Source: Escherichia coli
GTDB lineage: Bacteria; Pseudomonadota; Gammaproteobacteria; Enterobacterales; Enterobacteriaceae
DNA length: 15,311 nucleotides
Assembly: GCF_003334815.1 (NCBI RefSeq)
Contig: NZ_QOWO01000056.1
Reading direction: 5' to 3' (one strand)
Shown in pieces: positions 3,013-12,860 of the stretch. Numbering within the stretch: position 1 is the stretch's first letter; each line of letters starts with the position of its first letter. A program made the translations under genes and the position numbers. The notes under the pieces were generated by a model that saw nothing but the letters and a program-made list of their open reading frames with translations, had not been told where the DNA came from and searched no databases.

Positions 3013-3678
3013 TCAACGTTCTTTAGCTCCTTCCACTAACAGCCGACCTATCTCAAACACCGCAGCTGACCGTCCCGACTTCACCGCTTCGGCTTTCTGT
3101 CCCTCAACAAACCAGTTATTACCGTCCGTTCGGACCAACTCAAACATCCATGACATATCGTAAACGTGTTCCGGGATCAGCGACCCTTCTCCGGCCAGAA
3201 TACCCGCCGTTATGGAGTGGTTGCCCCCGTGCACAAAGCCAATACGCCAGGGCAACCACAGGTCAACATAGTGGTTGTTTTTATCTTGCTTCCACGGCTT
3301 CCCCTTATGGGTTCCAATGCGTGAAACGTTATCGATATAGCGTGGTAGGCTCCAAGGCCACGGCAGCACTATGTCGCTTGCCAGCGACAACGGATAATCA
3401 GCGCCGTTCATCTCACACTCTTTCATCTTTTCGTAAGATTGTATTTGGGTAAGTCCCTTAAAGAAGAACTCCTGCGGGGTCATATCCGGGCGGGCATCTG
3501 TTCCCTCCTCAGCTACCGCCAGCAAGAAATCACTCTGTACTGGCCGCACGATAGCGCGAATGAGATCTGGTAGCGCCTTAACGGGTAGTTTCTCTGCCAC
3601 AGAAAGCAGATGATTGAAGCGTTTTTTTTCATTGGCTATAGTTGCTTTATCTTTCTTGTTTCGGTTCCAGAACATCAC
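3013..3678 (-). CDS. Hypothetical protein, 221 aa, function unknown
   Basis: ORF with a strong upstream Shine-Dalgarno (TAAGGAGGG about 9 nt before the GTG/ATG start); Trp-rich segment PWPWSLP..DLWLPWRIGFVHGGNHS; no family recognised. Convergent with the 294-aa gene. Confidence 0.6.
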   Translation of the reverse strand: MMFWNRNKKDKATIANEKKRFNHLLSVAEKLPVKALPDLIRAIVRPVQSDFLLAVAEEGTDARPDMTPQEFFFKGLTQIQSYEKMKECEMNGADYPLSLASDIVLPWPWSLPRYIDNVSRIGTHKGKPWKQDKNNHYVDLWLPWRIGFVHGGNHSITAGILAGEGSLIPEHVYDMSWMFELVRTDGNNWFVEGQKAEAVKSGRSAAVFEIGRLLVEGAKER

Positions 3679-4247
3679 TGTCTGTAGCCCTCCTTATCGT
3701 GATCAGGATGATGGTTTTCATTCTAATGGTGTAGTAGTTTCACGTCACGCGCACGTGCATATTCTTCGAAAGCTTCGGCGTTAGCCGGTCAACCAGGGGT
3801 TTGAGGCCCAACCGTACGAGATCGTACGCTAAGTTCATTTTTTGAGCAGAAGAGGTGAGTAAAGAAAACGAGGGTTTTGTTTACTCTTCCCGTCAATGCC
3901 AGTAGCCATGCGGTTTCAGGGACTTTCAGTGTTAATAAACTCGGTAATCAAATCAACGTAAACCTGCCTAACAACGCCACGACTTTATTGACTTAAAATC
4001 ATATAGTTAGCTTCTTAGCGTACGTTTCCGCTCCATTGGGCTTCAAACCCCACACCCAATGACATGAGAAAAGCTGGATCTGATTCTCAAAATGCTGGGA
4101 TACCCATCGAGATGGAGAACTCAGTCAATGTTCCATTCTTTCTGAAATATGTGTGGGGACACTGATCTGTCGGGAGCCGGATGCGGTAGTTCCGCAGGTC
4201 CGGTTCTGAGGAGGGGCCCGTCCGGGCAACCGGCGGGTCTACTCACC

Positions 4248-4811
4248 TCATCCCCCTACAACCACTCCCATTCGTTTAAGTATTTTTAAACCTGCTTCCT
4301 GTGGTATCTTTATAGATAAGATCCTGTTTATCTCAGGATTTATATCGAGACCTTCTGTCATTGAAAAATCACAGTGAGACAAATCAGAATGTCTGAACTC
4401 TGTATTATTAAACTCCGAACCAGTAAAATCAGATTTACGAAGGTCTGTTTCCTCAAATAAACAATCACGGAAGCGACAGGATAAAAAAATAGATTTCTGT
4501 AACCGTAAACTAATAAAATCAACAAATCTCAAATCACAATTTACAAGAGAAAAAGTACAGGGAAACATAATGTCTGCTGCATTTACTCCTTGTAATAAAC
4601 AATCTTTGAATTCACAGTCAATAAGTTTAAAAAAATTAAGTTTTAAATTCTTTATTGAGCAGTTTACGAAGCGACATTTTTCGAACTCACAATCGCGAAA
4701 GTTAAAGTTGTCAAGCTGTATTCGTTCAAATATACAATTGTAATAATTTACACCTGATAATTCACTTTCACTGAGGTGTCGTTTTGTGATTCTTTTTTCT
4801 ATTATATCCAT
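4248..4811 (-). CDS. mcbG: Microcin B17 immunity protein McbG (pentapeptide-repeat, Qnr-like gyrase protection), 187 aa
   Basis: Last gene of the mcb operon by position; length matches McbG; pentapeptide-repeat character visible (CIFERIQLDNFNFRDCEFEKCRFVNCSIKNLKLNFFKLIDCEFKDC..). Confidence 0.92.
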   Translation of the reverse strand: MDIIEKRITKRHLSESELSGVNYYNCIFERIQLDNFNFRDCEFEKCRFVNCSIKNLKLNFFKLIDCEFKDCLLQGVNAADIMFPCTFSLVNCDLRFVDFISLRLQKSIFLSCRFRDCLFEETDLRKSDFTGSEFNNTEFRHSDLSHCDFSMTEGLDINPEINRILSIKIPQEAGLKILKRMGVVVGG

Positions 4812-4814
4812 GTG

Positions 4815-5546
4815 TCAGTCTCCTGTTCCCATAACTTCTTTAATAAATGCCTTTTCTGGAGTTGTTTCATTATTGGATTGAATAAAATCACTCATATCAG
4901 AATAACGATTTATACTATTTTTTGAAAGCATATAGAAGGGGATTTTATCTCTTGTTAATTCATCAAAAATATGAGTTGAGAAAAATACCGTTTTCCCGTC
5001 AGCGGTGATCTTATTTATCAGTTCCCATAACATCATTCTGTACTGAATATCAATGCCTACAGTTGGTTCATCCAGTAAAAATAAACGGGCATTTTTGCAA
5101 AGCGTTAGCATCAAAGATATGATAAGCCAACGCTTCTCTCCATAACTTACCGTGTAAGTCCTTTTACGTCTTATTTTATCATAGCGAATGAAAAAATTAT
5201 CATTCCATTTATGATTAAGCTCTGTCCATGCCTGTTTTTTAGTTAACTTATTGAAGCAGCAAATCAAATCAAGAACCTCCTCATTCCTTAGTGTACCTGA
5301 AAGATTTATGACTTGAGGTAGACTTACTAATTCTCCACCAGAGAAATTTCGCTTGAGGGTCCCTTCATAATTACTGACTCCGCCCCTGATAAGGTTAAAA
5401 AGAGTGGTCTTCCCGGCTCCATTTTCTCCAAGCAGACCTATCAACTCTCCCTGCTCAATCTTAAGCGACAGATTATTGAAAACAGGGGGTAAATTTACTT
5501 TATATGAAAAGCTCAGAGAGTTGATTTCTAAAAGAGGTATGGTCAT
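4815..5546 (-). CDS. mcbF: Microcin B17 export/immunity ABC transporter ATP-binding protein McbF
   Basis: Walker A GENGAGKTT, ABC signature-like FSGGE, Walker B LFLLDEPT; 4-nt overlap with mcbE (ATGA) suggests translational coupling. Confidence 0.92.
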   Translation of the reverse strand: MTIPLLEINSLSFSYKVNLPPVFNNLSLKIEQGELIGLLGENGAGKTTLFNLIRGGVSNYEGTLKRNFSGGELVSLPQVINLSGTLRNEEVLDLICCFNKLTKKQAWTELNHKWNDNFFIRYDKIRRKRTYTVSYGEKRWLIISLMLTLCKNARLFLLDEPTVGIDIQYRMMLWELINKITADGKTVFFSTHIFDELTRDKIPFYMLSKNSINRYSDMSDFIQSNNETTPEKAFIKEVMGTGD

Positions 5547-6268
5547 TGAGAACTCCAGACTGGCTCAGTTTTGAAGGTTAGTGCTGAAATAATACTTATG
5601 ATTAACATTATACTATAGAAAAATATCGTCATCAGAGACAACTCCTGGTCTGACTGGAGTATTGTAGAATAGATGGCGATAGGATTAACCTGATTTATCC
5701 AGTAAACGATCCCCTCATTATATTTTAATGATACAATTCCTGATACCATACAGACAGTTATTAATACAGAATAGATAGTGCTGGCTGTTTGGAATGTGAC
5801 TCTGAACGATGCCATGAAAGTGAGTGAAACCATCATAAATGCATTTATGTATATCGATTTTAAAATAATCATTACTATTTGATAATCTGGACTTGCCTGG
5901 AATCCTGTTAGTACGACTAAAATGAAAAAAAACACATACAAAATAGACATGATAAGTGAGGCTATTAATTGAGAACGAATAAATAATAGTCGACCATCCA
6001 TATTATGCACGAAGGTAGCAATAAAACCACTTTCTCTTCTTCCGACCAGATACAGACAGTAATTAAACAGAACAACAGAAAAAGAAATGTAGCCTACAAA
6101 CCATGATATTTGTTTTCCGAGCCATGCTGTATCACCATAATGAAGTTCAATTTCATTGAAATGAAGGAAAAAGAACAACACTGTAGGTGACATAATTGTC
6201 CATATTAAGCTGAAAGGGGTTCTGATTTGTTCCATCAGAAAAATTATCGCCATTTTTAATGTAACCAT
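5543..6268 (-). CDS. mcbE: Microcin B17 export ABC transporter permease McbE, 241 aa
   Basis: Highly hydrophobic multi-pass membrane protein of the correct length, positioned between mcbD and mcbF. Confidence 0.9.
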   Translation of the reverse strand: MVTLKMAIIFLMEQIRTPFSLIWTIMSPTVLFFFLHFNEIELHYGDTAWLGKQISWFVGYISFSVVLFNYCLYLVGRRESGFIATFVHNMDGRLLFIRSQLIASLIMSILYVFFFILVVLTGFQASPDYQIVMIILKSIYINAFMMVSLTFMASFRVTFQTASTIYSVLITVCMVSGIVSLKYNEGIVYWINQVNPIAIYSTILQSDQELSLMTIFFYSIMLIISIISALTFKTEPVWSSQ

Positions 6269-6277
6269 TTGTTATCC

Positions 6278-7468
6278 TTATGGGAATGGTACCATCTTTG
6301 ATTCTCTGACTTTAATACCGTCCCCGGTATGGTAAATTTTATTATTAATGTTTATTGCACCTGAGTTATTCATATGAAGGAAAAAATCAGGGCTTACTAT
6401 TTTTGTGTACCAGACAAGGCTGTTACTTACTCTTTCCCTGGCATAGTAAACAAAAATATTATCAGAAATTTGTTGAAGATAGTTTAATAAATTTGTGTCT
6501 GACGTAATATTTTCCTCAAGCGTTAACTTGACATCATCAGACAGTAGTACCGTATTTTCACACAAATCCGTAAACGACTCGTACTTGTTGCATGACATAA
6601 AGTGACGCTGGTAACTATCAATAATGTCATCATCAGTATAACCGCCAATAAGAAAGTTGTGCAGGCATATATACGATTGCCACAATTCCACTACGGATTT
6701 ACAAAGTGCTTTTTTCAGACTATTAGCATAGGATAATCCGGTACTGTATTTTATTCGACTGATTTTGTTTTTTGTGCCATACAGGGTTAGTACTGCGTGT
6801 CCAGGAGCTCCGGGCAGGGTGATATCGAAAATCCTGATATCTCCTTCTGACCTGAGAGCCAGTAAAATCTCATCTATATGATTTATGCCTGTTACTATTT
6901 CACTGGATATTTCAGTATTGGCTTTTCCCTGTAACCAGTAAAGAAGGAGGGACTGTCTCTCCATAAATTCACACAAGGAACCTTCTATGGCATCGTTCAA
7001 ACTACCATGAAAGCTACATCCGCATGTATCTCTGTCAGGATAAAATTTCAGATCATCTGCAGCGGTTATATTGTCGAGTGCAATTATGACTGCAGGTATT
7101 TCTTGTTGTTCAAGGCTAAACAGATTAAAGGCTCTGACCGTTTTAAATTTATGGGTTATGATTTCATCGCGGGTCAGTGATGAGATCTGAAAAAATGCTT
7201 CGGTAAAAGCCTTTGCAGCAGATGGAGGCATCATCTCATATAATGTTTTCTGACCACCGGTGACTATCTCATTAAAAAAATGACGGCGTTCAAAATATTC
7301 ACCTATTGCCCCCTGAATTGACTTCAGAGTTTCACCGGCCGCGCTGGCTGGTGTAATACGCTCATAGTCCCATATCTGAGAAAACGTTGGCATATTTCTG
7401 TTCAGTTTTGGACTCATGGCCATTGTGGCCGGCCATGCGGACATAAGGTTACTGTAGACATTTATCAT
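6278..7468 (-). CDS. mcbD: Microcin B17 synthetase YcaO-type cyclodehydratase McbD, 396 aa
   Basis: Position and length match McbD of the mcbABCDEFG operon; start overlaps the mcbC 3' end by 20 nt. Confidence 0.92.
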   Translation of the reverse strand: MINVYSNLMSAWPATMAMSPKLNRNMPTFSQIWDYERITPASAAGETLKSIQGAIGEYFERRHFFNEIVTGGQKTLYEMMPPSAAKAFTEAFFQISSLTRDEIITHKFKTVRAFNLFSLEQQEIPAVIIALDNITAADDLKFYPDRDTCGCSFHGSLNDAIEGSLCEFMERQSLLLYWLQGKANTEISSEIVTGINHIDEILLALRSEGDIRIFDITLPGAPGHAVLTLYGTKNKISRIKYSTGLSYANSLKKALCKSVVELWQSYICLHNFLIGGYTDDDIIDSYQRHFMSCNKYESFTDLCENTVLLSDDVKLTLEENITSDTNLLNYLQQISDNIFVYYARERVSNSLVWYTKIVSPDFFLHMNNSGAININNKIYHTGDGIKVRESKMVPFP

Positions 7469-8267
7469 CGTTTACATCTCCAAAAAACTGAACGATCAGT
7501 GGCGCTACGGTCCTCTGATCCAGATTCATTGTTTTTGCTACGTATGAATCGGTATATCCCGCCCATACCCGGTTTTTCAGTCCTATTTGATCTGCAACCA
7601 ATACTGCGTTCTGATACATCGAACCTGTTTCCATTAAGGCCATCCGGTATCCTCTGTAGCGATATTTGAACAAAGCTTTTTCAAAAATAATGCAATAGAC
7701 GAGAGCAAAATGGGGTTTACCAAGACGTTCCGAATCCCCACCGGACAGGCTTCGGTAGAGTGACTGAGTATTACATGTAGCAACAGGTTCCAGTGCCTGA
7801 CTTAGCGGCAGGTAGTGATAAACATTAGTTCCTGCCTGCCAGTTTTCTGTATTTTCAGATAATCTGCATAAAAAAACTTCAATCGGGTACAATGCCCCCC
7901 CAGAAGGATAAGGTCTTCTTACAGAGCCAGGATCAGGTGAGCTGAATGCATTGACTAATAACTTTTCAATAGTACGAATGGAAAGTTTATTTTTGTCGCA
8001 AAAGTTTATTCCTGATGGGAGCCTTTCACGACTAAAATTATGTGATGAGGATATGTTTATTACGGAGCTGAAACCTGGCCTGAAGAGAACTTCTTTATTT
8101 TCAAATTTCTCCAGATGGGCAAGAGGTACCGCGGACACGAAAGTTCGTTCAGCAAATTCGGGGAGGGAAGCAAAGTTACCTCTGACATGAAAATCTTTAA
8201 CAATGGCCAGAACTTCAGGATCTGTGTAATGCGTTACTTCCACTAAAGAGAGTTCGTGTTTTGACAT
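7449..8267 (-). CDS. mcbC: Microcin B17 synthetase FMN-dependent dehydrogenase McbC, 272 aa
   Basis: Position and length match McbC; immediately follows mcbB with a 1-bp gap. Confidence 0.92.
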   Translation of the reverse strand: MSKHELSLVEVTHYTDPEVLAIVKDFHVRGNFASLPEFAERTFVSAVPLAHLEKFENKEVLFRPGFSSVINISSSHNFSRERLPSGINFCDKNKLSIRTIEKLLVNAFSSPDPGSVRRPYPSGGALYPIEVFLCRLSENTENWQAGTNVYHYLPLSQALEPVATCNTQSLYRSLSGGDSERLGKPHFALVYCIIFEKALFKYRYRGYRMALMETGSMYQNAVLVADQIGLKNRVWAGYTDSYVAKTMNLDQRTVAPLIVQFFGDVNDDKCLQ

Positions 8268-8268
8268 G

Positions 8269-9156
8269 TTATCTCTCCAGACAGCTGCAAGCCTGCCAGT
8301 GAATTACCGGCTCTTTACATAAAATACTGGTGATTAAATCAGCGCTAACAGATGACATAAAGTTATCGACATGACTTTTAACCAGTGAAGTACCTGTCAA
8401 CTCCTGAAGTCGCCGTTTTATTAAATGATAGCTGAATCCTCTTTCTGATTCGCCTAAAGCCAATGCTGGTAGTGTCATTTGGTATTTTTTCAGTAACTGA
8501 AGTAAGTTTGCCCAGGACATTTCGTTACGTCTGAAGCTTTTTTCTTCCCTGCTCAGCCATCTCTCTATATGACAAAAATGGCAGGGAGTACCAAGATCAG
8601 GTGAATATACTCCATCTATCCTGAATGACTCCTTTAGGTAGTAGCTTTGGATGAAGGCAACACCAGGGTTACTTTCAAATTTTGAATAGATTCTTTTTAC
8701 AATGTCTGAATGATAGTTTTCGAGATGTAACCAGATTAGTGTTGAATCGCTCACATTAATATTATTATCTTTTATATCAATGATATGAGAAACAAAAACA
8801 CCATCAGATTTCCATTGTTCCCGGGCATTACTGAAAAGATGTGGAACATCGCTTATTATGACTGAGTTTACCCAGAGAGGTGATGTTTTCGTTTTATTTA
8901 TCACGCCTGTGGTAATAAGAAACTCTTTGCCCTTGTCTTTATCAATAAGCGATTCGTCCAGTAGTTTATCAAGGAGGTATTCAGAAATAATACCCTGTTT
9001 GGATCGTAGGCTTTCGAGTACTTTTTTCATTCCCTCATGTGTAATGTCTACTGAAGAAATGTAGGTAATAAGCAGGGTCTTTGTATTTCTGGAAATTATC
9101 TCAAATGGCAGAATATTGATCATATCTTTTCCTTTTTTAATATCAGGGAGCACCAT
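8269..9156 (-). CDS. mcbB: Microcin B17 synthetase zinc-binding scaffold/cyclodehydratase subunit McbB, 295 aa
   Basis: Position and length match McbB; Cys/His clusters (..PCHFCHIERW.. and C-terminal ..HWQACSC..) are consistent with a zinc tetrad. Confidence 0.92.
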   Translation of the reverse strand: MVLPDIKKGKDMINILPFEIISRNTKTLLITYISSVDITHEGMKKVLESLRSKQGIISEYLLDKLLDESLIDKDKGKEFLITTGVINKTKTSPLWVNSVIISDVPHLFSNAREQWKSDGVFVSHIIDIKDNNINVSDSTLIWLHLENYHSDIVKRIYSKFESNPGVAFIQSYYLKESFRIDGVYSPDLGTPCHFCHIERWLSREEKSFRRNEMSWANLLQLLKKYQMTLPALALGESERGFSYHLIKRRLQELTGTSLVKSHVDNFMSSVSADLITSILCKEPVIHWQACSCLER

Positions 9157-9164
9157 GCTCCCTG
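9144..9164 (-). promoter_or_regulatory. Hairpin in the mcbA-mcbB intergenic region sequestering the mcbB Shine-Dalgarno, with the AUG in the loop
   Basis: Minus-strand RNA reads 5'-CAGGGAGC-AUGGU-GCUCCCUG-3': a perfect 8-bp stem whose 5' arm contains the AGGGAG ribosome-binding site, with the mcbB start codon in the 5-nt loop. Confidence 0.5.
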
Positions 9165-9182
9165 AACGGTTAATTCAACGTA

Positions 9183-9380
9183 TCAGATATGTGAACCACT
9201 TCCGCCGCTGCCACCGTTTCCACCACTACAACCGTTGCTGCAACCACCACAACCGCCACCTTGACCACCGCAGCTACCGCCGCCACCACCACCAATGCCA
9301 ACACCTAATGGAGACTGGCGTGATAATTTAAGAGCATCAACGGACAAAACTACACCAAATTCACTCGCTTTTAATTCCAT
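9183..9380 (-). CDS. mcbA: Microcin B17 precursor peptide McbA (65 aa in this copy)
   Basis: Translation MELKASEFGVVLSVDALKLSRQSPLG|VGIGGGGGGSCGGQGGGCGGCSNGCSGGNGGSGGSGSHI is the McbA leader plus Gly/Ser/Cys-rich core. Shine-Dalgarno AGGAG lies 5-6 nt upstream. Confidence 0.95.
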   Translation of the reverse strand: MELKASEFGVVLSVDALKLSRQSPLGVGIGGGGGGSCGGQGGGCGGCSNGCSGGNGGSGGSGSHI

Positions 9381-9600
9381 AAGGACTCCTTTTTTAAGGG
9401 AAATTAATGCTTATGACATCTGAATAGTATGTTGGCCAACACTAGTTACTTGCCGTAATTAACTATATTTTGCAATGATAATTTGAACTAAATTTGTACG
9501 CCTGTTAAATATTTAATAATAATATCAGTTGGTTATGTTTGTGTGGTTATTGTTTTTTTACAAAAATTAATATTGTGTTTACATTTTGCTTTCAGTTGCT
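9381..9600 (-). promoter_or_regulatory. Putative mcb operon promoter region (Pmcb)
   Basis: About 220 bp of very AT-rich non-coding DNA directly upstream of mcbA. The mcb operon is known to be driven by a stationary-phase, OmpR-dependent promoter upstream of mcbA. Exact -35/-10 not assigned. Confidence 0.45.
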
Positions 9601-9635
9601 GTCAGGATGTCACACTACCCCTTTAAGCCCCCACT

Positions 9636-9834
9636 GGTCTGGCAGGGCCGGGGGTGGGTAAGGTGAAACCTGTCAATCAGTACCGGCTTACGCCGGTATC
9701 ATATGCAACAACTGAGTGCCGCCTTCCATGCCGCTGGTGCGGCATATCCTGGTGACGATATCTGAATTGTTATAGATATGTATATACGTAGTAATGACAA
9801 GAATAGGATAAGTTAAAAATTTACAGGAGATGCA
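9636..9834 (+). repeat. Copy 2 of the diverged ~200-bp direct repeat, upstream of the small membrane protein gene
   Basis: See copy 1. Conserved hairpins CCGGCTTACGCCGG and ATGCCGC-NNNN-GCGGCAT (loop TGAA in copy 1, TGGT in copy 2, stem identical). Confidence 0.7.
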
Positions 9835-10131
9835 ATGATTCAGACACGTAATCAATATCTGCAGTTTATGCTGGTTATGCTGGCTGCATGGGGCATTAGC
9901 TGGGGAGCCAGATTTGTCATGGAGCTGGCCGTTCTGCTTTATGGGCCAGGAAAAAACTATTTGTTCTTCAGTCATGGTGCTGTTCTGATGTACCTGCTGT
10001 GTGTTTTCCTGGTATACCGCCGTTGGATAGCTCCACTACCGGTCGTTGGTCAGCTGCGCAACGTTGGCGTACTGTGGCTGGTCGGTGCGATGGCCGTGGT
10101 GTATATCGGTGTATTTCTGCTCGATCGATAG
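9835..10131 (+). CDS. Small hydrophobic membrane protein, 98 aa, about 3 predicted TM segments, function unknown
   Basis: Good Shine-Dalgarno (AGGAG 5 nt upstream); three hydrophobic stretches (FMLVMLAAWGISW, AVLMYLLCVFLVY, VLWLVGAMAVVYIGVFLL); GC-rich codon usage in contrast to the adjacent mcb genes. Confidence 0.6.
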   Translation: MIQTRNQYLQFMLVMLAAWGISWGARFVMELAVLLYGPGKNYLFFSHGAVLMYLLCVFLVYRRWIAPLPVVGQLRNVGVLWLVGAMAVVYIGVFLLDR

Positions 10132-10175
10132 GAATATTCCGGCAAGTGTCATCTGTATTTAAAGGTCGTGTGAGT

Positions 10176-10628
10176 ATGAAATTTATGGAATGTGCTGTCC
10201 GGGATGTGATTTATGGGACCAATGTCCGTATTGTCAAACCGGTCAACATTTATGAATGTGAACTCAGGGACAATGTGTTTGTCGGCCCCTTCGTTGAGAT
10301 ACAGAAAGGCTGTGTCATTGGTAGTGGAAGCCGGATACAGTCGCACACGTTTATTTGTGAGAACGTAACACTGGGGGAGAACTGCTTCATTGGTCATAAC
10401 GTGACGTTCGCCAACGATCTGTTTCGTTCAGGAGCACCAGATCCGTCACCGGATAACTGGATCAGCATTACCCTGGGGGATTCGGTTACTGTTGGCAGTG
10501 GAGCCATTATTCTGTCTCCGTATATATGCAGCGGAGCTGTTATTGGTGCGGGTTCAGTTGTGGTAAAACCGATTGAGAACAAAGGCATTTATGCAGGAAA
10601 CCCGGCAAGACTGCTCAGAATATTATGA
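10176..10628 (+). CDS. Hexapeptide-repeat (left-handed beta-helix) acyl/acetyltransferase, about 150 aa
   Basis: Repeated [LIV]-G-x-x-x-x hexapeptide pattern and the characteristic C-terminal ..IGAGSVVVKPIENKGIYAGNPARLLR. The track ORF 9999..10628 has an implausible N-terminal extension overlapping the membrane protein gene; the ATG at 10176 (MKFMECAV..) is the likely start. Confidence 0.75.
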   Translation: MKFMECAVRDVIYGTNVRIVKPVNIYECELRDNVFVGPFVEIQKGCVIGSGSRIQSHTFICENVTLGENCFIGHNVTFANDLFRSGAPDPSPDNWISITLGDSVTVGSGAIILSPYICSGAVIGAGSVVVKPIENKGIYAGNPARLLRIL

Positions 10629-10633
10629 AAAAG

Positions 10634-10658
10634 AAAAGGGCCGTTACTGGCCCTTTTT
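10634..10658 (+). terminator. Rho-independent terminator after the acetyltransferase gene (possibly bidirectional)
   Basis: AAAA-GGGCC-GTTACT-GGCCC-TTTTT: GC stem flanked by an A-run and a T-run, 6 nt after the stop codon. Confidence 0.7.
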
Positions 10659-11031
10659 ATCAGAGGTAGGTCTGTGAATACGGTAGGTGTACAGAAATCG
10701 ACTGCCGGGGATCGATTTCCAGGGCCGCCCGGTATTCTGCGTCAGTGATATCACCTTTTTTTCAGTAAATAACCGAGAGCATCGTTTCCCAGCCCTGACA
10801 GTATGCGTATTCTGGCGACCCGGACTGGCAAATAACCCATCAAAAACGTTATTGCCAGACATTGCGAACTCACCAATTTTGATTATTGGAGCCACTTTTT
10901 CATAAGTTCCGTGAAATTATTTCATAATAACGACCATGTTTATTTTATGTAATGACTGGCAATAAAATAACTTGATTAAGTTCCCTTTATCCAGCCTGAT
11001 AGTGGATAAAGGAAACTCAATCATAATTTAA

Positions 11032-11385
11032 TTAGTTTATTAACTTCATCGCATTCTTTTTTGTCTCCTCATCACTTTTTTGCTCCGATTGTGAAGAGGA
11101 CTGAATGATTGTTGAAGAATTTAAATCGGCCATCTCTTTTGGAAATAGCGATCTCAATATATTCACGATATCTGAAAATGTGGTTTCTTTCGTCAGCAAT
11201 TCACATAAAAGGAAAGGGGCCCTGGGATCTTGTCTGTATAAGGCCAGACCTGCCGTCAGTGCAGCCCGGTTAAGGCGGCTGCGTTCCCCTTGCGGGATAC
11301 TGTCCAGTGTATCACAAACAATTTTATCTGTTTGATTTACATCTGGATTTAGCTTAAAGGCAATGGTTCTGCGCTTGTCCATCAT
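11032..11385 (-). CDS. parR: Plasmid partition centromere-binding adaptor ParR (StbB), 117 aa
   Basis: Translation [50 protein letters not shown].. is recognised as R1/R100-type ParR; TAATG stop/start overlap with parM. Confidence 0.9.
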   Translation of the reverse strand: MMDKRRTIAFKLNPDVNQTDKIVCDTLDSIPQGERSRLNRAALTAGLALYRQDPRAPFLLCELLTKETTFSDIVNILRSLFPKEMADLNSSTIIQSSSQSEQKSDEETKKNAMKLIN

Positions 11386-12347
11386 TAATTACCTATGAGA
11401 TACATACCGTTAACTAAATCATATTGAGAGTTATTGGTTTTAAAAAAACGTTCATCACGAATCTGTGTGTTTTTTTTTACTGCATCGCATATTAATTCTG
11501 CGCCACCACCTATAACCATAACATGAGTATAACCAGAAAATTCATTGAGTGTATTTAATACACGTTGCTCAAGTTTACGAAGTGCTTCATTCATTGCTTC
11601 GGTGACTATTGATATTTTGTTCTCATCATTAATTCGTTGCTTCAGATAGTTATTATCTTTTCTGTGAATAATTATATCGTCAGCAAGATAGCTACTTCCT
11701 TTTGTTCTCGCAAGAGAAAGGGCATCTTTTACTGCAGATGTGACCAGAGATACACCAAGAGATGAGTCTCCGTATATTTTACTGATCCCCGATAATTTCC
11801 CCATTACCTGAGAAATATCTAATGTGGTGCCCCCGAGATCTATAATTAATAAAGAATCTAACTCATCCAGTTCTTGTAGAACTTCATAACCTGCCGGTAT
11901 AGATTCAGGCATGACTTTTACATCTTTTATTGTGAATGCATCCCCACCATTTAATGTAATTTTTTTCCGGAAGTTTGCTTTCTTACGCTCAATATTTTCC
12001 GTATTGGGTTGGTTATTCCTGTCGTAATACTCTGTCAGAGGAAGTGTGCAAACAATATCCACTTCACTTACCGGCAGGCCACTGGTCAGTAAGGCGTGGT
12101 GCACCGCAACGACATTAACGTCGCTGTATTGCCATGCGATATTGGTTGTGACTACAGCATCCGGGCTGATTGGATCAAATGAATACTGTTCGCCGTTCAG
12201 TGTGTAGTTAAAGACCTTTTTATCACCAAAAGAAACTGCCCACTCGCGTTTGAAGCTGTTCGGGCTAATGTGCTGTTTAATTGTTCCGTCGCTTTCCTGC
12301 CACTGTAGTTTGATGTTTGTTGAACCGTCATCAATGAATACCAACAT
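11385..12347 (-). CDS. parM: Plasmid segregation actin-like ATPase ParM (StbA), 320 aa
   Basis: Translation [36 protein letters not shown].. is recognised as R1-type ParM (actin fold, 320 aa); Shine-Dalgarno AGGAG upstream. Confidence 0.95.
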
Positions 12348-12362
12348 TTATAAAACTCCTTA

Positions 12363-12515
12363 TGGTGTTTTTTTTGGTGTTTGTTTGGGTGTGTTTTGGG
12401 TTTTAAGTGGGTTTATTTGTCAAGTTTACCCCATTTTAACTATCAATCAATGATTATTTGTCTTGTTTTGGTGTTTTATTGGGTTTGGCGTGGGTTGTTT
12501 TTGGGTTTTGTTTGG
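12363..12515 (-). repeat. parC: parC centromere: two clusters of five 11-bp iterons flanking the par promoter
   Basis: Directly visible 11-bp direct repeats ending in TGG/GGG (TGGTGTTTTTT, TTGGTGTTTGT, TTGGGTGTGTT, TTGGGTTTTAA, GTGGGTTTATT, then a ~43-bp spacer, then TCTTGTTTTGG, TGTTTTATTGG, GTTTGGCGTGG, GTTGTTTTTGG, GTTTTGTTTGG). This is the known R1 parC architecture. Confidence 0.8.
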
Positions 12516-12524
12516 CGGATAACA

Positions 12525-12860
12525 AAAGATGTCGCCGGGCTCCTCTTTTTACTGCGCCGGCTGACGCGGCGCGGCAGGAACGCTGCCTGTGGTCAGTGTC
12601 CCGCGTCCGGCCGGGCACGGGACGGGCGCTTTTACCGCTCCCGGCTGGCGTCGGTGACAGTGTACGCCAGCTCGTCGCCCTTTTCTGATGAGCGCCCTTC
12701 AAGCCGCTTTCGCGGCATAGCCTTGCCGTCAAAAAGACGACGGCTGCGGTATTCCACGGTCGGCCTGACCCGTTACCGGACGCGGTGAACAGCCCACAGG
12801 CAGCGGGGAACGGGCACCACAGGGGTGCCCTCCCGGTGCCCTCTGTAAGAGAAGGAGCGT
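12525..12860 (+). promoter_or_regulatory. GC-rich, hairpin-dense non-coding region upstream of the methyltransferase; candidate single-strand initiation / ssDNA promoter (Frpo-like) element
   Basis: Numerous inverted repeats (GACGCGG..CCGCGTC, GCTGGCGT-12nt-ACGCCAGC, CGGCA-TAGCCT-TGCCG, GGGCAC-CACAGG-GTGCCC). Its first ~40 bp (AAAAGATGTCGCCGGGCTCC..TTTAC..) recur at 15085. The functional assignment is inference. Confidence 0.35.

Follow-up and report, generated by a model that had tools for sequence, protein, structure and literature searches.

A probable recombination junction between a tir stump and an intact acyltransferase gene beside a microcin B17 operon

The window, that is, the whole stretch of 15,311 nucleotides of Escherichia coli DNA analysed here (assembly GCF_003334815.1, contig NZ_QOWO01000056.1), is part of an IncFII microcin B17 plasmid. 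Two plus-strand open reading frames (ORFs) are situated between mcbA and parR. The first (9835-10131) is separated from mcbA by a 454-bp intergenic region, and the second (10176-10628) is called acT hereafter, as a shorthand for the acyltransferase gene. A first-pass annotation, made from the sequence alone, had described the two ORFs as a two-gene unit divergent from mcbA, encoding a small membrane protein and a hexapeptide O-acetyltransferase. The present analysis indicates instead that the pair is very probably a recombination or deletion junction of two different DNA segments, and no natural operon. The features of the junction, followed by the flanking genes, are:

9635-9834, plus strand: native IncFII repA4-tir intergenic DNA, including repeat copy 2 and the tir ribosome-binding site
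9835-10131, plus strand: tir' pseudogene, 96 native tir codons, 2 foreign codons and TAG
10124-10135: filler ATCGATAGGAAT, 12 nt, defined by alignment with tir-bearing and acT-bearing loci
10136-10824: accessory-module fragment, 689 bp, colinear (87-99% identity) with loci L004-L007, L018 and L021
10176-10628, plus strand: acT, intact hexapeptide acyltransferase gene, 150 amino acids (RefSeq 'acyltransferase' WP_000670963.1; 'fdtC' in pMccB17, ON989342)
10634-10657: bidirectional intrinsic terminator hairpin, AAAAGGGCC-GTTACT-GGCCCTTTT, from a terminator scan
10660-10822, minus strand: 3' remnant of a gene for an FMO-like FAD-dependent oxidoreductase, amino acids 407-460 of 510, with a frameshift near 10757-10761
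4248-9380, minus strand: mcbG-mcbA
9183-9380, minus strand: mcbA
11032-11385, minus strand: parR
11385-12347, minus strand: parM

Part of the initial description was borne out. An AGGAG box upstream of the ATG at 9835 provides the first ORF (98 amino acids) with a good ribosome-binding site, and both ORFs lie on the plus strand with mcbA on the minus strand. The G+C contents are 50.5% for the 9835-10131 ORF and 46.8% for the acyltransferase gene, versus 37.8% for mcbG-A; the origin apart from mcb that had been deduced from this contrast agrees with mosaic boundaries mapped at 9635, 10123 and 10136.

The tir stump and the junction

The 98-amino acid ORF had no Pfam or NCBIfam match, and its identity came from DNA homology. 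When 9835-10658 was compared by megablast with a set of 72,556 plasmid records, 3,573 records matched, just 9 of them at 80% query coverage or more. Most matches concerned query bases 1-289 only, and fell in genes annotated 'CPBP family intramembrane glutamic endopeptidase' or 'tir: transfer inhibition protein'. Over these first 289 nt, tir in about 3,200 plasmids is 97-99% identical to the window ORF at the DNA level, and amino acids 1-98 of Tir are 93% identical to its product. As a reference, tir of pRSB225 has 217 codons and stands in the order repA1 - repA4 - tir - pemI - pemK. Homology to tir stops at 10123 in the window, so that the gene is cut at codon 97 and its first 40%, approximately, is kept, together with 200 bp of native upstream DNA that include the tir ribosome-binding site.

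The missing part is the one that carries the enzymatic domain. Full-length Tir has a Pfam Rce1-like domain (CPBP/CAAX-type, PF02517) at amino acids 120-207, and its EExxxR/FxxxH/His motifs (NEETLFR, FVAAH, HMEAT) all lie past amino acid 130, outside the stump. Strong hydrophobic stretches at about amino acids 42-61 and 76-97, plus a weaker N-terminal one (Kyte-Doolittle), are present in the 98-amino acid ORF. In sister plasmids the equivalent ORF is labelled by RefSeq/PGAP as a pseudogene, 'incomplete; missing C-terminus'. Because orthology and repA4 synteny are kept and the catalytic domain is lost, we regard the stump as a fragment of a CPBP Tir-subgroup gene and not as a functional member. 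What had been taken for a small membrane protein gene in its own right is the first 40% of tir, and 9835-10131 is, judged on its sequence, a dead tir stump lacking the protease domain.

Compared with tir of the IncFII plasmids R100/NR1 (repA4-tir-pemI-pemK), the window copy has the same first 96 codons and 200 bp upstream, at an equal position relative to repA4 sequence. It differs by the absence of the Rce1-like domain and of pemIK, and it adjoins mcb, not the repA4 of the active replicon. The tir product is reported to inhibit transfer of the IncP plasmid RP4 (Tanimoto et al. 1985, cited by PMC5696584 and PMC4398462).

On the left of the stump, mcb-specific DNA stops at 9634, and 9635-9834 aligns both with the repA4-tir upstream DNA of pRSB225 and with repeat copy 1 of the window (see below). 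Plasmid pSTEC1024_2 matches the window without interruption over 3177-10123 (99.6% identity) and then continues into a full-length tir-pemI-pemK. It carries mcb, with mcbA divergent from tir-pemI-pemK, and acT is not adjacent. To judge from this alignment, the layout of pSTEC1024_2 is likely the ancestral left-hand arrangement.

On the right, past the 12-nt filler, an unrelated segment starts at 10136. Window positions 10136-12846 match a block acT - FMO remnant - parR - parM that is also found in pA1705-NDM, which has no mcb. In other plasmids, homology on the parR side starts at about 10820, next to the end of the 689-bp fragment. The FMO remnant was delimited by a tblastn search of the window with the L006 protein, which aligned in two frames at 88-95% identity, and 54 codons are left. 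A terminator had also been reported behind the second ORF. The hairpin at 10634-10657 indeed has a stability of -16 kcal/mol (z = -3.1), with a U-run behind it, and an identical hairpin is present in L002; it does not belong to the ORF pair alone, however, as it is the native bidirectional terminator common to the convergent acT and FMO-like genes, of which the latter survives as the remnant at 10660-10822.

The window-type junction is rare: it was present in 9 of the 72,556 plasmids and in 5 of 5,426 complete E. coli genomes, the set used for all genome counts. Copies of the region in the E. coli genomes are 99.7-99.9% identical, which points to one recent lineage. Most mcb plasmids, including the prototype pMccB17 (ON989342), have another junction, without the tir ORF, in which about 140 bp of native acT-upstream DNA (L002, 4861-5000) follow directly on a tir side that ends at 9729. 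The acT upstream region reaches at least 140 bp in other plasmids and is lost in the window variant. Neither end is shared between the two junction types, so they arose by separate deletion or recombination events.

The two ORFs are separated further in pSF-173-1 (L017, 2047-6996), where a Tn3 with blaTEM-1 sits exactly between them, its inverted repeats flanked by a 5-bp GAATA target duplication that corresponds to window positions 10132-10136. In this plasmid, a resistance transposon entered an otherwise resistance-free MccB17 plasmid backbone.

The acyltransferase and its neighbourhood

The start of acT is the ATG at 10176, as in all orthologues and in the PGAP annotation, with merely AAGG as Shine-Dalgarno sequence, 10 nt upstream. 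A start at 10167 was dropped, since the orthologue alignment puts the ATG at 10176. The protein matches the Pfam Hexapep family (PF00132, E = 8.2e-8), with further repeats besides, and its AlphaFold2 monomer model, built with 43 homologues, is a left-handed beta-helix (LbH; mean pLDDT 95.2, pTM 0.88). Foldseek searches with this model gave TM-scores of 0.86 to WlbB and 0.80-0.82 to FdtD. In a profile search of PDB sequences, the FdtD N-acetyltransferase domain came at 1.7e-31, a 165-amino acid N-acetyltransferase (7s43) at 1.6e-29, QdtC at 1.7e-27 and WlbB at 7e-25; maltose/galactoside, Vat and CatB acetyltransferases ranked far behind. FdtD, QdtC and WlbB each acetylate the C3 amino group of a sugar. 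With the N-terminal domain of FdtD (4mzu), QdtC (3fs8) and WlbB (3mqg), the acT protein shares the LbH fold, the motif F-I-G-x-N-V-x-F-x-N-D and a C-terminal G-N-P-A-R. It differs from them in being minimal, at 150 amino acids, in having about 25% identity, and in lacking nucleotide-sugar pathway neighbours.

From these comparisons, the acT protein appears to be a relative of the 3-amino-sugar N-acetyltransferases that falls outside every characterised equivalog. It is probably an amino-sugar N-acetyltransferase rather than an O-acetyltransferase. The homology and structure searches suggested by the first-pass annotation thus identified its first ORF as a tir fragment and its second as an LbH acyltransferase near FdtD/QdtC/WlbB: the hexapeptide acyltransferase stood, and probably acts on a small molecule, and O-acetylation found no support, the closest characterised relatives being N-acetyltransferases. 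Among other candidates, a gamma-carbonic anhydrase was considered, YrdA having the top Foldseek E-values (TM 0.75). It was set aside because the profile search favours N-acetyltransferases by many orders of magnitude, the NCBIfam gamma-carbonic anhydrase model scores just 7e-6, and the TM-scores are higher to WlbB and FdtD.

Orthologues of acT, at 70-89% identity, occur in Enterobacterales and Vibrionaceae. The dN/dS ratio is 0.05-0.08 against the orthologues of a Salmonella plasmid, Brenneria and Klebsiella sp., and the family is under purifying selection. Invariant residues were found across the 43 homologues, among which His57, Cys61 and His74 are near-invariant and family-specific.

The complete neighbourhood of acT is found elsewhere. 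In E. albertii pEA50_1 (NZ_CP117571, 26839-32231; L018, 8001-13393) and E. coli pF16EC0186-1, acT is followed by a convergent five-gene operon, whose genes are, in the direction of transcription, DegT-type aminotransferase, HAD-IIB hydrolase, Gfo/Idh/MocA oxidoreductase, SemiSWEET and the 510-amino acid FMO-like oxidoreductase. The aminotransferase matches KabA (4e-91) and NtdA (3e-88), and the hydrolase matches NtdB (6e-47). The same six-gene arrangement, with identical order and spacing, was also found on an Erwinia plasmid and in Pantoea ananatis, in both cases with proteins 72-75% identical and among unrelated flanking genes. The FMO-like gene is full-length in L018, L021, L022 and L023, and in these same four loci the ntd-like cluster stands beside acT orthologues that are 72-99% identical. 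Among the plasmids of PLSDB, 59 carry the six-gene module intact and 534 carry it in part. The window holds none of the ntd-like aminotransferase, phosphatase and dehydrogenase genes; the module's first 689 bp alone remain.

The enzyme set and gene order of the cluster are those of the ntdABC/kabABC pathway for kanosamine (3-amino-3-deoxy-glucose). This pathway was reportedly described by Vetter et al. in 2013. Common to ntdABC of Bacillus subtilis, kabABC of B. cereus and the enterobacterial cluster are a KabA/NtdA-like aminotransferase, an NtdB-like HAD-IIB phosphatase and a Gfo/Idh/MocA dehydrogenase, in equal order; the enterobacterial cluster differs by the addition of the SemiSWEET transporter, the FMO-like monooxygenase and the convergent LbH acyltransferase. 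It resembles a kanosamine-type pathway supplemented by genes for tailoring and export. It is seemingly unstudied: on the enterobacterial ntd-like cluster, the literature searched yielded no more than a statement in passing that concerns ntdABC of an E. coli pAA plasmid (PMC5320562).

The acT gene was present on 342 plasmids and E. coli-type mcbAB (at least 95% identity) on about 107. Their co-occurrence was counted by junction-spanning queries, not by intersecting the two plasmid lists: a query spanning mcbA to acT was found at 80% coverage or more on 88 plasmids, which leaves about 250 acT plasmids, roughly three quarters, without mcb alongside. The acT-parR junction, typical of the pMccB17-like backbone, was present on 96 plasmids, to be compared with the 88 for mcbA-acT; such tight linkage on this backbone is as expected of a single lineage. 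Among the E. coli genomes, 424 of 5,426 carry acT, including 91 chromosomal places. Contexts of acT free of mcb include ColIa/ColV plasmids, IncK2/Z and IncI-gamma plasmids with colicin M or Ia, a Salmonella plasmid with a tRNase colicin and an integrative island in the chromosome of an avian pathogenic E. coli. One and the same protein, WP_000670963.1, is encoded on mcb and on ColV plasmids, and in a divergent mcb-like cluster of Klebsiella (79% identity) neither tir nor acT is found next to mcbA. The first-pass annotation had stated that its proposal would fall if the pair were a common backbone gene set of plasmids without mcb, and had called for a survey of the pair next to mcb. For acT, that is largely the situation observed. 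As for the pair itself, the exact junction is confined to the nine plasmids mentioned above, and most mcb plasmids lack the first ORF.

As a separate observation, a bacteriocin locus is found no more than a few kb away from the acT module in L004, L005, L006, L007, L020 and L021. The loci concerned are those of colicin Ia, V, M, a tRNase colicin and a colicin lysis/transport remnant, and in the window the neighbour is mcb. No bacteriocin gene was present within the stretches examined of pA1705-NDM (L019) and E. albertii pEA50_1 (L018).

The 'fdtC' gene of the prototype pMccB17 (ON989342) is the same gene as acT, and sits between mcbA and stbB/stbA; a 901-bp acT-parR query matched this record at 99.0%. 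The prototype differs from the window by a spacing of 529 bp between mcbA and the gene, about 140 bp of native acT-upstream DNA and the absence of a tir ORF. In the paper on pMccB17, 'fdtC' is an automatic name only, without analysis, and production, export and immunity are assigned to the seven mcb genes, mcbA-G (Ajeigbe et al. 2024, PMC10912980). The analysis brought nothing to light in favour of a microcin role of the pair, and acT has neither a demonstrated nor a necessary part in the production or export of microcin B17 or in immunity to it.

Readings of the locus

Taken as a whole, the observations are in our opinion best explained, with good probability, by a tir stump joined to a relic module, with an intact amino-sugar acyltransferase and no part in the microcin system. 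The structural side of this account is very probable: mcb with a duplicated IncFII repA4-tir piece and tir stands on the left, the backbone block acT - FMO remnant - parR - parM on the right, and a recombination or deletion event removed tir from codon 97 on, and everything up to 40 bp before the acT ATG. In the window variant, acT could be transcribed only by read-through from the tir promoter region (9635-9834). Its enzyme, which is strongly conserved, would be functional, its native setting being presumably beside the ntdABC/kabABC-like operon, the product of which would be a kanosamine-type 3-amino-3-deoxy sugar, and it would most likely use acetyl-CoA to N-acetylate the 3-amino group of this sugar, or of a derivative, for tailoring or self-protection. 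Assignment of the substrate to a kanosamine-type 3-amino sugar or a derivative is tentative, at somewhat less than even chances. More doubtful still is the further step that acT is an orphaned self-protection or tailoring enzyme of a plasmid-borne pathway of Enterobacterales for a kanosamine-like 3-amino sugar antibiotic or a derivative, with its ntdABC-like genes, SemiSWEET exporter and flavin N-monooxygenase. The orphan-enzyme idea would imply, with the same reservation, that the cluster comes repeatedly to lie beside colicin and microcin loci, decays piecemeal and leaves acT behind, on microcin B17 plasmids and in many chromosomes, as a resistance-type gene that stands alone. An enzyme able to work alone could persist as an orphan after decay of the cluster, and also as a single-gene insert in many chromosomes.

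Several observations weigh against parts of this account. The acT gene is convergent to the ntd-like operon and stands outside it. A conserved operon partner for chromosomal acT orthologues was sought in ten genomes, and in eight of the ten distant orthologue contexts, from eight further genera, acT is a lone gene among unrelated housekeeping genes, so that its substrate need not come from the ntd-like cluster. The family-specific His57, Cys61 and His74 are not present in FdtD, QdtC and WlbB, and the protein reaches no NCBIfam equivalog cut-off (best TIGR03570, 60.3 bits versus 160.8). The substrate thus rests on homology at about 25% identity (24-26% to FdtD/QdtC/WlbB) and on gene adjacency. 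As to the plasmid, the linkage in 88 of 96 cases cannot by itself tell hitch-hiking from function. Finally, no consensus sigma-70 promoter was detected in 9635-9834 or upstream of acT, for either junction type, and as the promoter scans found none, expression of acT is something that we infer.

Could the pair nevertheless serve the microcin? A functional two-gene operon of a membrane protein and an O-acetyltransferase, co-regulated with the mcb promoter and acting in MccB17 self-protection, export or modification, would be compatible with two open ORFs, the good ribosome-binding site of the first, the intergenic region of 454 bp held in common with mcbA, and the presence of acT next to mcb in 88 of the 96 acT-parR plasmids. 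We hold it to be extremely improbable. Its first gene is a truncated tir, flagged as a pseudogene, that has lost every CPBP catalytic motif and is missing from the prototype pMccB17 and most mcb plasmids; the supposed unit consists of segments of different origin joined by a 12-nt filler in only 9 plasmids, and Tn3 splits it in pSF-173-1. The DNA at 9635-9834 does not belong to the regulatory region of mcb but is the native upstream sequence of tir. In about 250 plasmids acT is without mcb as a neighbour, the Klebsiella mcb-like cluster does without both genes, and production, export and immunity are already credited to the seven mcb genes (PMC10912980). Nor is it much more plausible that the 98-amino acid Tir fragment works by itself as a small membrane protein, for instance by still inhibiting RP4 transfer, or as a modulator. 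Its ORF is open, with three hydrophobic segments and the native ribosome-binding site and upstream region, and at least 9 plasmids, besides the Tn3 derivative, have retained it; against this very improbable option, every CPBP motif is lost, most sister plasmids have deleted the ORF entirely, and its persistence reflects recent common descent and not selection, because the carriers are 99.7-99.9% identical across the region.

For acT itself, the automatic name raises the question whether it is a true FdtC, a dTDP-3-amino-3,6-dideoxy-galactose 3-N-acetyltransferase for O-antigen or lipopolysaccharide, which would modify the envelope. FdtD, QdtC and WlbB head the profile matches in the PDB, and an FdtC-type name appears in two database records (by Prokka in pMccB17). 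Identity is merely about 24-26%, however, the best NCBIfam score is 60 bits where 160.8 would be needed, and nucleotide-sugar (dTDP/UDP) pathway genes such as RmlA/B, an FdtA-type isomerase or glycosyltransferases were adjacent in none of at least 20 contexts, the neighbours being either ntdABC-like genes, whose enzymes take sugar phosphates as substrates, or housekeeping genes that are unrelated. Equivalence to FdtC was rejected on these sub-threshold scores and the lack of pathway neighbours, and we regard this identity as quite improbable. That acT is a stand-alone enzyme modifying xenobiotics or antibiotics, its adjacency to the ntd-like cluster being incidental, has more in its favour, although it still appears unlikely: the gene is alone in 8 of 10 distant contexts, each time among different housekeeping genes, it is intact, under purifying selection and outlasts the decay of its neighbours, and weaker matches to Vat, CatB, Maa and LacA-type acetyltransferases exist. 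Opposed to this, the order and spacing of the six genes are repeated in Erwinia and Pantoea, where the proteins are 72-75% identical and the flanks unrelated, which argues for selection on the linkage, and the profile scores to 3-amino-sugar N-acetyltransferases are better than those to xenobiotic acetyltransferases by at least 10 orders of magnitude. This option is a fair alternative, and it overlaps with the idea of self-protection.

For the microcin B17 system this account changes little, the pair providing no unrecognised accessory function. The components are of known kinds and already annotated (tir in IncFII plasmids, 'fdtC' in pMccB17), and their assembly is ordinary plasmid mosaicism. 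In annotations, 9835-10131 should be entered as a pseudogene of tir instead of a small membrane protein. For the plasmid lineage, mcb with its duplicated repA4-tir was joined to the backbone block by at least two independent junctions. The sole lead of some promise is the six-gene amino-sugar cluster from which acT derives.

Flanking repeats and the mcb side

Direct repeats corresponding to the 3' region of IncFII repA4 are present at 1376 to about 1507 (copy 1) and 9635 to about 9746 (copy 2). They flank an 8.26-kb segment that comprises an exonuclease gene, a hypothetical gene, a Tn3-family inverted-repeat remnant and the entire mcb operon. The gapless core of the repeat is 62 nt long (92% identity), and the whole, in which there is a 21-nt indel, reaches about 110-135 nt. 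Copy 1 hardly differs from the sequence of R100-type plasmids, with copy 2 showing more divergence, and this suggests that mcb came along with its own piece of another IncFII replicon.

Upstream of copy 2, in the mcb-specific AT-rich promoter region, lies a sigma-70-like match (9557-9585, plus strand, TTTACA-17-TACATT, 9/12) that is conserved in L002 and is the sole one directed toward the tir stump. Such matches were at least as numerous in shuffled sequence.

On the opposite side of mcb, directly downstream of mcbG, 38-nt terminal inverted repeats resembling those of the Tn3 family are found at 3796-3833 and 4014-4051 (GGGGTTTGAGG...ACGCTAAG); they are 79% complementary, lie 180 nt apart and form a miniature transposon remnant.

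Upstream of parM, directly adjacent to it, T/G-rich direct repeats with a spacing of about 11 nt extend over 12357-12519. These are presumably the iterons of the parC centromere, by analogy with the par system of R1.

The mcbA gene of the window encodes 65 amino acids, with a run of 6 Gly after VGI. Sister plasmids are annotated with 68-69 amino acids, and canonical McbA has 69 (PMC10912980); the length of the poly-Gly linker of McbA is therefore polymorphic.

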